Made by a program: the position numbers and the translations under genes. This document shows, in pieces, positions 3,484 through 30,123 of a stretch of 64,000 bases of DNA (position 1 is the stretch's first letter; the number at the start of each line of letters is the position of its first letter). The DNA comes from Gammaproteobacteria bacterium. Its GTDB lineage: Bacteria > Pseudomonadota > Gammaproteobacteria > Eutrophobiales > Eutrophobiaceae. The stretch is taken from contig OZ220696.1 of NCBI GenBank assembly GCA_965116495.1, forward strand, positions 2,944,001 through 3,008,000, written 5' to 3'. Below the pieces are notes generated by a model. The model saw nothing but the letters and a program-made list of their open reading frames with translations, was not told the DNA's origin and made no database searches.

Positions 3484-4893
3484 GTGACGAGATGGAACAC
3501 AAGTTTTTTCCACACAACAGGCAAACGTCTTTTAGCCTGTTACCTGTTGCTGTTTGCCTGGTCTCCGGTCCACGCCCAAGTCCATGAATATAATCTTGAA
3601 AACGGCCTGAAACTGCTGGTGAAAGAAGACCGGCGGGCGCCGGTTGCGGTGTCCCAAATCTGGTACCGGATCGGTTCAAGCTATGAGCATGACGGCATCA
3701 CCGGCATTTCCCACGTGCTGGAACACATGATGTTTCAGGGGACGGAAAAATATCCCGACGGGGAGTTCTCCAGGATCATTGCAGAAAACGGCGGCAACGA
3801 AAATGCATTTACCGGCAAGGATTACACCGCGTACTTTCAGATGCTGGAAAAATCCAGGCTGGACGTCAGTATCAGGCTGGAAGCGGACCGTATGCGTAAC
3901 CTGGTGTTGTCGGAGGAAGAATTCGAGAAAGAAATTGAGGTGGTGAAGGAAGAGCGGCGTCTGCGCACCGATGACAACCCGGTCGCATACCTGTATGAAA
4001 CAGCGTTTGCCACGGCATTTCAGACCGCGCCCTATCGCCATCCGATCATCGGCTGGATGGCGGACCTGGACACTTTGCGGATTGGCGACCTGAAGCTATG
4101 GTACGACCGTTGGTATGCCCCGAACAATGCCACCCTGGTAGTGGTAGGTGACGTCGAACATGAAGTGGTCCGGCAACTGGTGCAGGAACATTTCGGCCCG
4201 ATCAAGTCAAGAGTGCTGCCTGCGGCCGGGGGCCTCCCCGAAGTGACCCAGCAGGGATTGAAACGCATCTCGGTAAAGCGCCCCGCAGAACTGCCGCACC
4301 TGCTCATGGCGTATAAAACACCGGTTTTGAGCAGCGCGGCCGCAGCCCCTGCATCCTGGGAGCCGTACGCGTTGGAAGTCCTGGCCGGCGTGCTGGACGG
4401 AGGCAACAGCGCGAGGCTGGAAACCCGCCTGGTACGGGGCCAGGAAGTGGCCGCCAGCGTTGGTGTTTCCTATGACATGGCAAGCCGGCTGGACGGCCTG
4501 TTTATCATACAGGCTGTGCCTGCCCGGGAACGGACTGCCGGCGAGGTGGAGCAGGCGGTCAGGGAGCAGCTGGAAAATTTAAAAACAGGGGACATCGGAG
4601 AGCAGGAACTGGCGCGGGTGAAGGCGCAGGTCGTATCAAGCGATGTCTACGAGCGGGATTCAATGTTTTATCAGGCCATGACCCTGGGCGCGTTTGAGAC
4701 CGTGGGCCTGCCCTGGCGACTGGCAGATGAGTACGTGTCACAGATCCAGGCGATCAGCGTTGAACAGGTAAAACACGTGGCGAACAAGTATTTCCGCGAT
4801 GACGGATTGACGATAGCCGTTCTCGACCCGCAACCCATAGAAACGATACATGAGCCGCAACCGCAGGCAGGAGAGGATGCGCATGCGGGTTAA
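3484..4893 (+). CDS. M16 family zinc peptidase (catalytic subunit)
   Basis: HVLEH (HXXEH) motif, ENAFT, signal peptide; conserved position next to ftsY. Confidence 0.92.
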   Translation: MTRWNTSFFHTTGKRLLACYLLLFAWSPVHAQVHEYNLENGLKLLVKEDRRAPVAVSQIWYRIGSSYEHDGITGISHVLEHMMFQGTEKYPDGEFSRIIAENGGNENAFTGKDYTAYFQMLEKSRLDVSIRLEADRMRNLVLSEEEFEKEIEVVKEERRLRTDDNPVAYLYETAFATAFQTAPYRHPIIGWMADLDTLRIGDLKLWYDRWYAPNNATLVVVGDVEHEVVRQLVQEHFGPIKSRVLPAAGGLPEVTQQGLKRISVKRPAELPHLLMAYKTPVLSSAAAAPASWEPYALEVLAGVLDGGNSARLETRLVRGQEVAASVGVSYDMASRLDGLFIIQAVPARERTAGEVEQAVREQLENLKTGDIGEQELARVKAQVVSSDVYERDSMFYQAMTLGAFETVGLPWRLADEYVSQIQAISVEQVKHVANKYFRDDGLTIAVLDPQPIETIHEPQPQAGEDAHAG

Positions 4894-6325
4894 TGCCGTA
4901 ATGACGGCGCACCGGATAACGATCAGTACGCATCAGCGTTCTTTTCCCGGGCTCTGTCTGTACCAGCGTCGGCGCTGGAATAACATAGTCCGGCCACTGC
5001 GCAGCTTCATCCGGGCAGGATTGCCGGTACTGTTGCTGCTTGTTGCCCGGGGCGCTTGGCCGGCCCCGGTTGTGCTGGACTGGCAGACCGGGGGGGGGAG
5101 CCGGGTCTTCTTTGTTGAATCCCGTGAATTGCCGATGGTGGATATCCGCGTGCTGTTCGATGCGGGCAGCGTACGTGAGCCTGCCGGCAGGAACGGCCTT
5201 GCAGTACTGACAAACAGCTTGCTCGATGAAGGCGCCGGCGGGCTGGACTCCACTGCGATCAGCTTCGAATTCGAACGGCTGGGTGCGCGCTACAGTGCCG
5301 AATCGGGCTATGATTATGCGTCCGTAAGCCTGCGATCGTTGTCGGACCCGACGTTGCTGGCGCCTGCCCTGCGTAATTTAAGCCGGGTGATCACTGAACC
5401 GGGGTTTTCCGAAAAGGCGGTCGAAAGACAGAAACAACGCTTGCAGCTCGCTATCCGGCGCAAACAACAGGCGCCTGCAGAGATTGCCCGGGATGCGTAC
5501 CTGGCGGCCATATACCAGAATCATCCGTATGCGCTGCCCAGCGACGGTACGCTTGAAAACGTGGCCCAACTGAGCCGGCAGGATATTGTAGACTTCCATC
5601 GGGACTTTTACCATGCGGACAATGCCAGCCTGGTAATAGTCGGAAACCTGGGCAGGGAACAGGCCGCGGCGCTGGCTGAGGAATTGACGGGTGGATTGCC
5701 GCGGGGACGGGAACTGGAACCGTTGCCGGCCGTGGCGCGGTTGGAGCAGGCCCGGGAGATACGTATCGAGCATCCTTCGTCACAGGTGCACGTTCTGCTC
5801 GGCCAACCGGGCATCAAACGCGGCGATCCCGATTATTTCCCGCTGTACGTGGGCAACCATATACTGGGCGGCGGCGGCTTTGTCTCGCGCCTGTATGAAG
5901 AGATCCGGGAAAAACGCGGCCTGTCATACGGCGCGTACAGTTATTTTTCTCCGCGACGTGAAGCGGGACCGTTTACTGCAAGCGTGCAAACCCGGGGCGA
6001 GCGGCAGGAACAGGCATTACAGGTGATGCGCGATACCGTTCGCGCCTTTATCGACCGGGGGCCCACGCCTGCAGAGCTGGAAGCGGCGCAAAAAAATATC
6101 AGCGGCGGTTTTCCCCTGCGGCTGGACAGCAACAGCAAGATTCTCGGCTATATAGCCATGATTGGTTTTTATGATCTGCCTCTGAATTACCTGGATACGT
6201 TTATCAGCAAGGTAAACGCGGTGACCGTTGAAGAAATCAGGGACGCATTCAAGCGCCGCCTGCACCCGGAGCGATTCGTTACCGTCCTGGTCGGGCCGAC
6301 CGGACCCGTAGCAGAAGAGAACTGA
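4850..6325 (+). CDS. M16 family peptidase, non-catalytic partner subunit (true start probably further downstream)
   Basis: Lacks HXXEH; has SRLYEEIREKRGLSYG; paired with the previous gene. Confidence 0.88.
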   Translation: MSRNRRQERMRMRVNAVMTAHRITISTHQRSFPGLCLYQRRRWNNIVRPLRSFIRAGLPVLLLLVARGAWPAPVVLDWQTGGGSRVFFVESRELPMVDIRVLFDAGSVREPAGRNGLAVLTNSLLDEGAGGLDSTAISFEFERLGARYSAESGYDYASVSLRSLSDPTLLAPALRNLSRVITEPGFSEKAVERQKQRLQLAIRRKQQAPAEIARDAYLAAIYQNHPYALPSDGTLENVAQLSRQDIVDFHRDFYHADNASLVIVGNLGREQAAALAEELTGGLPRGRELEPLPAVARLEQAREIRIEHPSSQVHVLLGQPGIKRGDPDYFPLYVGNHILGGGGFVSRLYEEIREKRGLSYGAYSYFSPRREAGPFTASVQTRGERQEQALQVMRDTVRAFIDRGPTPAELEAAQKNISGGFPLRLDSNSKILGYIAMIGFYDLPLNYLDTFISKVNAVTVEEIRDAFKRRLHPERFVTVLVGPTGPVAEEN

Positions 6326-22287: not shown

Positions 22288-22485
22288 GGGTACGGCCCGT
22301 ACGGAAAAGGGTTTCAATCAGCATTCTCCGTTTACTATAGTCAATTATGACAGACAAATAAAAAACGGCAGTCCGCATGCAACGGTTCGAAAGGAAATAT
22401 TCACCTGCTTTACCTGGTTTGATATAAGCGCCCCTGCAGAGAGACCCAGGTTCGGGCAGGCTTGACCTGCAGGATTGCAGGCAAT

Positions 22486-22512
22486 AAAAAAGGGTCCAGA
22501 GGACCCCTTTTT
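22486..22512. terminator. Bidirectional intrinsic terminator downstream of pqqA
   Basis: AAAAAA-GGGTCC-AGA-GGACCC-CTTTTT. Confidence 0.8.
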
Positions 22513-22532
22513 ATGCAACTTGTAATTATTAA

Positions 22533-22607
22533 TTACTTGTTGTTGATGTACATCGTAACTTCAAAACCGAAGCGGATGTCGCTGTATTCAGGAGTTTGCC
22601 AGTTCAT
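22533..22607 (-). CDS. pqqA: Pyrroloquinoline quinone precursor peptide PqqA (24 aa, not in ORF track)
   Basis: MNWQTPEYSDIRFGFEVTMYINNK; matches the PqqA pattern W..P...D.R.GFEVTMY with E-X3-Y; GGAG RBS upstream. Confidence 0.96.
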   Translation of the reverse strand: MNWQTPEYSDIRFGFEVTMYINNK

Positions 22608-22662
22608 TATACTTTCTCCAATTGGTTGATATTAAGGGTTAAAACTTCGCTGCCATTAATAA

Positions 22663-22678
22663 TGCAGGTTCTGTGCCA
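22663..22678 (-). promoter_or_regulatory. Sigma54 (-24/-12) promoter for pqqA
   Basis: Minus strand TGGCACAGAACCTGCA, exact GG-N10-GC spacing; IHF-like site AATCAGTTGGTTA at 22719-22731 just upstream. Confidence 0.8.
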
Positions 22679-22826
22679 AAATCAGGATTATTTTTAAATA
22701 ATAATTAATATCTTTATAAATCAGTTGGTTATAAATATATTAAGGGAAATGCGAAAATATATTGTGCGGGCGTGGTTCATATAAACTGGTTGTAATTATT
22801 CACAATTCTGGTTGTTGCCGACCATT

Positions 22827-22990
22827 TAACCCCCATTTCTCAGTGGGTGATGCGATGATCGCGCCGGATTTTTGCCCTCAGCGGGTGCCTGCGACCGAAA
22901 GCATAGCCGTAGCTATGGTTGAGAGAGCACGTGCCCGCTGAGGGCAAAAAGACAAGCGAGGGCGCGTCACCCAGTGAGAAATGGGGGTTA
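22827..22990. mobile_element. MITE, 164 bp, TA-bounded, 24-bp terminal inverted repeats
   Basis: TAACCCCCATTTCTCAGTGGGTGA ... TCACCCAGTGAGAAATGGGGGTTA (one mismatch); internal stem; homologous to 29661-30123. Confidence 0.85.
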
Positions 22991-29660: not shown

Positions 29661-30123
29661 TAACCCGCATATCTCACCAATTCGCTTGTTACTATCCGAA
29701 ACGTCAATATGCTGTCAATAAGTTATAGTAATATTCACACTATGTCATCATTACAGACTGCGCTTGATGCGCCCTCGCTTGTCTTTTTCCCGCCAGCGGG
29801 CACGTGTTCATTGCGTCCATCCCTGGACGCAACCCTTCGGGCGGCTATCGCCGTGCAAATCGGCTGTCCTGCCGATTTGTCCCTCAACCAGACAAATCTG
29901 CCTGGAGCAGATTTGGACGCTCGCAGAGCGCCCGCAGGGGGCGCCCCAAGGATGGGGCGCATCAACTACGGCTATGCTTTCGGTCGCAGGCACCCGCTGG
30001 CGGGACAAATCTGCCAGGAGCAGATTTGGACGTCCGCAGGACGCCTGCAGGGTGTGCGCCACGGAAGGCGCACATCTAAAATCCTGCGCGATCATCGCAT
30101 CAATTGGTGAGATATGCGGGTTA
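29661..30123. mobile_element. Composite MITE, 463 bp, perfect 22-bp TIRs, with three nested hairpin modules
   Basis: TAACCCGCATATCTCACCAATT ... AATTGGTGAGATATGCGGGTTA; backbone is the reverse complement of 22827-22990, interrupted at ~29810-29881, ~29891-29965 and ~30004-30077. Confidence 0.85.

Follow-up and report, generated by a model that had tools for sequence, protein, structure and literature searches.

The question raised by this locus is how a pqqA gene that stands apart from the other PQQ synthesis genes is switched on, and whether it is controlled together with them. The gene lies in a 64,000-nucleotide stretch of a gammaproteobacterial genome (genome positions 2,944,001 to 3,008,000; hereafter, the window), and positions below are those of the window unless marked as genome positions. 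A preliminary description had pictured a stand-alone pqqA unit with a sigma-54 promoter: a 24-codon gene with ribosome-binding site, -24/-12 element, IHF-like site and a terminator of its own. All of these parts were found, and the promoter anatomy of the unit is borne out by its conservation. Tallies of pqqA promoter elements below refer to 23 genus genomes (22 relatives and this one), scanned without G038 and G039.

The pqqA gene (22533-22607, minus strand) was identified as an open reading frame and by family profiles. Its 24-codon frame scored 45.1 bits with the PqqA family TIGR02107 and 39.7 bits with Pfam PqqA PF08042 (cut-offs 20 and 21.1 bits, respectively), and the encoded 24-aa PQQ precursor peptide has the E-x3-Y core and the ca. 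24-aa length of PqqA peptides. A genus-conserved ribosome-binding site, GGAGA (22615-22619, minus strand), is located 7 nt before the ATG. Upstream, pqqA is flanked by a pyrK-like gene. From the yggS-family gene on its downstream side it is separated by an intrinsic terminator hairpin whose stem is bordered by A and T tails at either end (22484-22514; arms of 14 bp each, 22484-22497 and 22501-22514), which could work in both directions. The 68-nt region of the hairpin folds with -23.5 kcal/mol (z -5.2; none of 200 shuffles was equally good), and the pattern is kept in 22 of the 23 genus genomes, the remaining one being at a contig end. A small AU-rich hairpin also spans the pqqA stop codon (22516-22542). 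On the other side, a REP-like inverted-repeat element with 40 blastn matches genome-wide (22827-22990) separates the pyrK-like gene from the enhancer region; it is not present at the same spot in many relatives, and lies outside the switch. A related copy is found near 29970-30120, copies occur in RNA contigs too, and the same intergenic spots in relatives are filled by different repeat families.

The genome, a single 4.34-Mb contig that is 99.5% complete, contains a single pqqA. No extra copies were found in this complete genome, and the suggestion that this gene might be such a copy was not borne out. All 22 relatives have pqqA, 21 of them with one match and G018 with one weak second match. 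The absence of pqqB, C, D and E from the 64-kb window, noted in the preliminary description, was confirmed, and their presence elsewhere in the genome, on which that description hinged, was established: they are located at genome 1.671-1.680 Mb, with pqqB at 1671481-1672410 (minus strand) and pqqCDE at 1677361-1679533 (plus strand), 1.29 Mb distant from pqqA. In a profile search of the genome, pqqB, pqqC and pqqE were above family cut-offs, and pqqD, an 87-aa frame between pqqC and pqqE, was assigned by position. There is no PqqA-like frame in front of pqqC, and the distance between pqqA and pqqB is at least 0.7 Mb in all 13 relatives that carry both on one contig. Molybdenum-cofactor and methanopterin-type genes lie in among pqqB and pqqCDE (L031:6894-19533, genome 1666894-1679533); pqqB is apparently transcribed together with moaD-moaE and not as part of the sigma-54 regulon. 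A tandem M16 peptidase pair between ftsY and rsmD (3484-6325), the only M16 C-domain matches in the genome, are candidates for a PqqF/G-type protease. The heavy use of PQQ enzymes that had been anticipated fits the gene content, since nine long PQQ-dehydrogenase-like frames were found, one of which, beside xoxJ/G-like genes, we take to be XoxF-type from its D-Y-D motif and its neighbours.

Upstream of pqqA, a sigma-54 -24/-12 element GG-N10-GC is located at 22663-22678 on the minus strand (GG 22677-22676, GC 22665-22664). Four matches to this pattern were observed in the window versus 1.85 expected (10 of 100 shuffles reached four), and the upstream palindrome described below, with up to two mismatches, occurs 27 times versus 25 expected. 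Since neither motif by itself exceeds chance expectation there, both were tested by conservation. The sigma-54 element precedes pqqA in all 23 genus genomes. An IHF-like 13-mer (22719-22731, plus strand), with one mismatch to the consensus WATCAAN4TTR, lies between the enhancer boxes and the promoter; a site at -52 to -54 on the opposite strand was the best match in 16 of 23 genus genomes, and was perfect in six. The genome also encodes RpoN (TIGR02395, 495.8 versus a cut-off of 277 bits). Transcription is predicted to start near 22652, 12 nt after the C of the -12 element, which would give a 5' leader of 22608-22652 (minus strand). Its segment 22643-22616, ending in the ribosome-binding site, is strongly conserved, and folding revealed no notable structure in the leader RNA (z +0.98).

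RNA from relatives (5-9% of words) was compared in seven runs, with contigs that carry no strand, start or level. In four runs from two studies, pqqA contigs of close relatives spanned only ca. 22509-22647 (from 22536 in X1), with an upstream edge at 22644-22647, that is, 5-8 nt inside the predicted start at 22652. As for individual runs, X12 covered a part of pqqA, X8 did not cover it, the X6 contig goes on into unrelated letters, the X9 contig passes through the promoter into upstream DNA, and X16, a deep run of unrecorded type, covered the entire stretch. The contig edges give a weak hint of a short, separate pqqA mRNA, and argue against a merely secondary role of the sigma-54 site, in which pqqA expression would come mainly from a sigma-70 promoter or from transcripts reading through out of the pyrK-like gene. 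The X9 contig is what read-through would leave, and sigma-70-like matches are indeed in excess in the region (five versus 1.5 expected). However, the best of these matches was rejected as a pqqA promoter, as it places its -10 element on the start codon and its transcript would begin inside pqqA; the others, located in poorly conserved AT-rich DNA, were rejected as well. We consider this route very improbable, and proceed with the sigma-54 promoter as the main one.

Further upstream, the conserved element is a tandem palindrome, TGGTT-N6-AACCA, a putative activator site judging from its sequence and conservation, which spans 22787-22824. Box A (22809-22824) has one mismatch, and 22 of 23 genus genomes keep it with no more than that. 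Box B (22787-22802) has two mismatches and follows at a pitch of 22 bp, or two helical turns; this pitch is kept in 20 of the 23 genomes, and is 23 bp in two more. In two sister genera, near-perfect box pairs with the same pitch were observed. A possible third, weaker box with two mismatches (22773-22788) is partially conserved. The boxes end 109 nt (B) and 131 nt (A) upstream of the GG of the -24 element. The promoter thus has palindromic sites within the 80-150 nt upstream range of sigma-54 promoters and an intervening IHF-like site at about -53.

The preliminary description had placed the enhancer at a TTGT-N8-ACAA dyad. This dyad is present (22790-22805) and overlaps box B, but it was rejected as the enhancer: it is kept in only four of 23 genus genomes, while the overlapping TGGTT-N6-AACCA pair is conserved. 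On sequence grounds, we regard the dyad as a chance by-product that overlaps the second real site. A TTGT-N8-ACAA-binding activator that tunes pqqA alone, apart from the biosynthetic enzymes, would agree with the physical separation of pqqA and its own terminator; given the poor conservation of the dyad and the sharing of the other box with pqqCDE and an importer gene (below), such an activator is hardly credible.

To see where else the box occurs next to a sigma-54 element, the whole genome was scanned. Among 102 intergenic sigma-54-like sites, the best boxes were those of pqqC (no mismatches), pqqA (one) and a gene for a TonB receptor at genome position 2371251 (one), which was picked out blind to its identity. 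Of the 2948 genes with 150 aa or more, only pqqC and this receptor gene have both the box and a sigma-54 element upstream. Perfect boxes at genome positions 47403, 771779, 853031 and 3854926 are inside genes, and one at 2076815 is in a stretch of overlapping frames; these five were treated as chance occurrences, and none is among the combined matches. The receptor is a homologue of PqqU (PDB 9c4o, E 2e-99; next family, E 7e-14). PqqU is called by the signature residues Y/F/W99, R304 and R365 (PMC12124388); F101, R302 and R362 of the receptor align with Y99, R304 and R365, and its Q86 aligns with Q84. With NCBIfam NF041535, the receptor scored 407 bits versus a cut-off of 1200, with that family still the best match by far; we therefore file it, from its sequence, as a predicted PqqU-type importer and not as an equivalog of the E. 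coli type.

Of 22 genus genomes, 20 have a sigma-54 element before pqqC, and 19 have a box there with no more than one mismatch. For pqqU, a box with at most two mismatches was found upstream in 14 of 19 genomes, with five lacking it, and the sigma-54 pattern in 13 of 19, with four more variants recognised by eye. Upstream of pqqB, neither a box nor a well-placed sigma-54 element was present in any of 21 genus genomes. Outside the genus, pqqU was found in six of 10 searched genomes that carry the sensor kinase described below, and in a seventh (G171). By the loose criterion of at most two mismatches, a box precedes pqqU in all seven, and GG-N10-GC, called partly by eye, in six. In another genome (G023), the box precedes a pqqBCDE operon. 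Since the box and the sigma-54 element also precede pqqCDE and the pqqU-type importer gene, pqqA is probably not tuned apart from the enzymes, as the preliminary description had proposed; judged from these shared elements, it is probably co-regulated with PQQ synthesis and uptake, and only pqqB escapes.

Four genes of the sigma-54 activator family score strongly in the genome. One of them, at genome 23086-24486, encodes a protein with a receiver domain, Walker A and Walker B motifs, a GAFTSA loop (which keeps the F and T of GAFTGA) and a Fis-type HTH, and adjoins a gene for a histidine kinase (genome 21592-23064), its predicted two-component partner and the first gene of the operon. In a comparison with family profiles, no named family fits either protein. 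The activator is below every family cut-off (NtrC, 369 versus 559 bits; AtoC, 366 versus 714 bits), no curated cut-off of the NtrC, AtoC, ZraR and PrsR orthologue groups is reached, and the kinase scored 145 bits with AtoS versus a cut-off of 646. A perfect box is located 38 nt before the kinase gene, with a TATACT -10-like hexamer closely following it. Of 21 genus genomes, 16 have this box in perfect form and four lack it, with one gap. With a matrix trained only on sites of relatives, the kinase promoter ranked first and pqqC third genome-wide, and the pqqA boxes ranked 31, 37 and 71. The activator recognition helix is conserved where the box is conserved, and G073, whose pqqA has a sigma-54 element and no box, has a different recognition helix. 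The other three activators fit worse because of their contexts or the lack of a GAFTGA loop: a XylR-type activator adjoins a monooxygenase cluster, the NtrC-type activator (ntrBC) adjoins glnA, which has its own, different sites, and the NtrX-type protein has no GAFTGA loop. With a two-component sigma-54 activator and rpoN at hand, the proposal that an enhancer-binding protein activates pqqA is likely to be right.

Several features were observed around these genes. The ntrC gene is split into frames of 122 and 375 aa by a frameshift near L034:8018 (L034:6870-8311, genome ca. 1900870-1902311), which may reflect either faulty assembly or a genuine break. The XylR/DmpR-type activator gene stands before an alcohol dehydrogenase gene and a toluene-monooxygenase-like cluster (L033:7177-14936), whose putative -12 element has GT instead of GC. 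Divergent from the kinase gene (L035:1984-4503, genome 18984-21503) are YkuD-family and MotA/ExbB-like genes and two genes for membrane proteins of 197 and 172 aa. This set of genes also adjoins the two-component system in Methylohalomonas lacus (L173) and in G414 (L205), and may form a module that energises PQQ-related uptake or takes part in the transport. A TonB-receptor-like frame with a long His/Asp/Glu repeat is located at L035:316-1971.

A sample of 400 genomes of the class was searched, and the kinase was found in 35. A pqqA gene was present in 32 of the 35 versus 32 of the 365 other genomes, and an XoxF-type gene in 29 of 35 versus 12 of 365. In 10 of the 34 other kinase-positive genomes the kinase gene is back-to-back with pqqA (eight from 29 loci that were read and two from coordinates), and in a second collection the same arrangement occurred in 16 of 23 distant loci and in none of 17 close ones. 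A composite box and sigma-54 pattern, defined on pqqA and pqqC, was found in 16 of the 35 kinase-positive genomes, directly before pqqA in 15 of the 16; in its strict form it was missing from the other 19. It occurred in 21 of 366 other genomes, never before a detected pqqA, and a reversed-pattern control matched 16 of 401 genomes, approximately the rate in kinase-negative ones. The matches linked to pqqA span nine families; related genomes are not independent in these counts, and the samples overlap. An unpublished genome, G063, is counted in the 35, 32, 10 and 16, and the conclusion does not depend on it. In the cultured Methylohalomonas lacus HMT 1, the kinase, the activator and the box are all present.

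Family f5 departs from this pattern. Two of its genomes, G358 and G222, carry the same two-component system, and the sigma-54 and box layout was found before none of the 12 pqqA genes read there; the target of the two-component system is therefore not universal. The f5 pqqA copies (L194-L201 and L210-L213) share another upstream motif, close to TCAGGAAAATCCTGA, which suggests another regulator. A two-component system without the box is also what would be expected if the palindrome were the operator of some other protein, such as a repressor, and the sigma-54 promoter were fired by the NtrC or XylR-type activator; the box is, moreover, palindromic, as are many repressor operators. However, the placement of the boxes 90-130 nt ahead of the -24 element, an IHF-like site intervening, is the geometry of enhancers, the box follows the kinase-activator operon from family to family and sits on the operon's own promoter, and NtrC-type sites were found at glnA and none at pqqA. 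We therefore regard operation by another protein as improbable.

We consider it likely that pqqA, pqqCDE and the PqqU-type importer gene are switched on together by the kinase-activator pair, acting through TGGTT-N6-AACCA. The observed starting point is the pqqA gene, the anatomy of its promoter, the shared box and their conservation. Genomic context and co-occurrence point to the activator of the operon as the protein that would bind the box. By analogy with NtrC-type systems, the phosphorylated activator would assemble on the boxes 109-131 nt upstream, IHF would bend the DNA, and the AAA+ domain would open the sigma-54 promoter. The product would be an mRNA of ca. 150 nt for pqqA alone, allowing the precursor, which is consumed, to be produced in large excess over the catalytic enzymes. 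The perfect box over the -35 region of the sigma-70-like promoter of the kinase-activator operon would result in negative autoregulation. The weakest step concerns the signal: the periplasmic part of the kinase may sense a small anion, with PQQ the leading guess.

The 260 N-terminal residues of the kinase are predicted to form a membrane helix, a four-helix periplasmic bundle, a second membrane helix and a HAMP domain (pLDDT 81). According to Foldseek, the one source of fold relatives used, the best matches of the sensor are NarQ fragments (E ca. 5e-4, 19-22% identity). No PilJ/NarX sensor Pfam was among the best 25 of 44 matches listed for 36 kinase members. Across 36 kinase sequences, conservation reaches 90% or more at residues W38, S42, E44, R47, R59, R64, Q65, F95, E107, Y118 and E157, and a set of this kind would suit an anionic ligand. 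PQQ is our leading guess because all members of the regulon serve supply and none encodes an enzyme that uses PQQ; that the signal is PQQ itself, its shortage turning the kinase on, is put forward tentatively, as a reading with well under an even chance. We know of no receptor for PQQ as a signal, and the kinase, if it is one, would be the first.

The same wiring could answer to a different signal, such as a C1 compound (methanol, formaldehyde or formate), a lanthanide or a small anion, raising PQQ supply when methanol dehydrogenase is needed; this alternative, which competes with the proposed signal only, is given a little less than an even chance. It draws on the enrichment of XoxF-type genes in kinase-positive genomes, on the proximity of the two-component system to xoxF clusters (immediately downstream in G358, nearby in G023), on the NarQ-like fold of the sensor, and on the response of known pqq regulators to substrates, as with AgmR in Pseudomonas (PMC12997753). 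However, a substrate-induced regulon would be expected to take in the enzymes, and none of the nine dehydrogenase genes of this genome, xoxF included, has an upstream box with at most one mismatch; xoxF here also lacks an upstream sigma-54 element. Returning to PQQ as the signal, the system would be a homeostat, in which low periplasmic PQQ leads one sigma-54 activator to induce precursor, synthesis and high-affinity import together. This full scheme is speculative, and we rate it as rather unlikely.

The mechanism proposed for the promoter is textbook NtrBC-like. NtrB/NtrC at glnAp2, AtoS/AtoC and ZraS/ZraR each pair a histidine kinase with a receiver-AAA+-Fis HTH activator. As in NtrBC/glnAp2, tandem palindromic sites lie ca. 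110-130 nt from a -24/-12 promoter and one site lies over the operon's own promoter; as in IHF-dependent sigma-54 promoters such as nifH, an IHF site is located between enhancer and promoter. Unlike in NtrBC, AtoSC and ZraSR, the kinase is of the membrane type, with a predicted periplasmic four-helix sensor and HAMP, the box is another one, the loop is GAFTSA and the target genes are those of PQQ supply. The predicted order of membrane helix, four-helix periplasmic sensor, membrane helix and HAMP, and a conserved arginine (R47) that closely follows the first membrane helix, are shared with NarQ/NarX (PDB 5iji, 6yue), whereas the identity is 19-22% and the partner is a sigma-54 activator instead of NarL/NarP.

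Among pqq regulators, AgmR is a LuxR-type protein. In Pseudomonas, AgmR/ErbR controls pqqFABCDE, described as one pqq operon, as well as dehydrogenase genes (PMC12997753). Here, too, one regulator would co-ordinate distant pqq genes; unlike AgmR, it would be a sigma-54 activator, with pqqA split off, uptake included and dehydrogenases apparently excluded. RpoE6 has also been reported as a pqq regulator (PMC12826043), and MxcQE/MxbDM are named for mxaF and xoxF (PMC9988556). Lone pqqA genes are already published: Methylosinus trichosporium OB3b has a stand-alone pqqA expressed ca. 40-fold above pqqB (11857 versus 306, Table 2; PMC3615186), Methylophilaceae have 3-12 pqqA copies (PMC4109929), and Hyphomicrobium denitrificans likewise has multiple copies (PMC9851590). 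In all of these, as here, the precursor gene is apart from pqqBCDE, and the consulted sections of the three papers name no sigma factor, activator or operator for it. The introduction of PMC9851590 describes the control of PQQ output as poorly understood. The receptor resembles PqqU of E. coli and P. aeruginosa in being a TonB receptor homologue with the published signature residues. The pqqU and pqq genes were taken to be generally regulated independently, as inferred from a lack of synteny (PMC12124388), and P. aeruginosa pqqU is reported to be constitutive (bioRxiv 10.64898/2026.04.27.721047); here, the unlinked pqqU, pqqA and pqqCDE share a putative operator and a promoter type. No sigma-54 two-component regulator of pqq genes was found in the portions of the open-access literature consulted; the kinase-activator pair and the three-unit PQQ-supply regulon are newly proposed and were not found in print there.

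A concrete predicted regulator, a putative operator and a list of three target units would tie PQQ synthesis to PQQ import, and most of the bacteria concerned carry XoxF-type methanol dehydrogenases. The system is open to test in a cultured organism, M. lacus HMT 1, where kinase, activator and box all occur. Should PQQ prove to be the ligand, the system would offer a natural biosensor for PQQ and a way of approaching its exchange within communities. If real, a homeostat of this kind would occur widely among uncultured gammaproteobacteria that bear XoxF, and PQQ producers could use it to turn to scavenging a shared cofactor.
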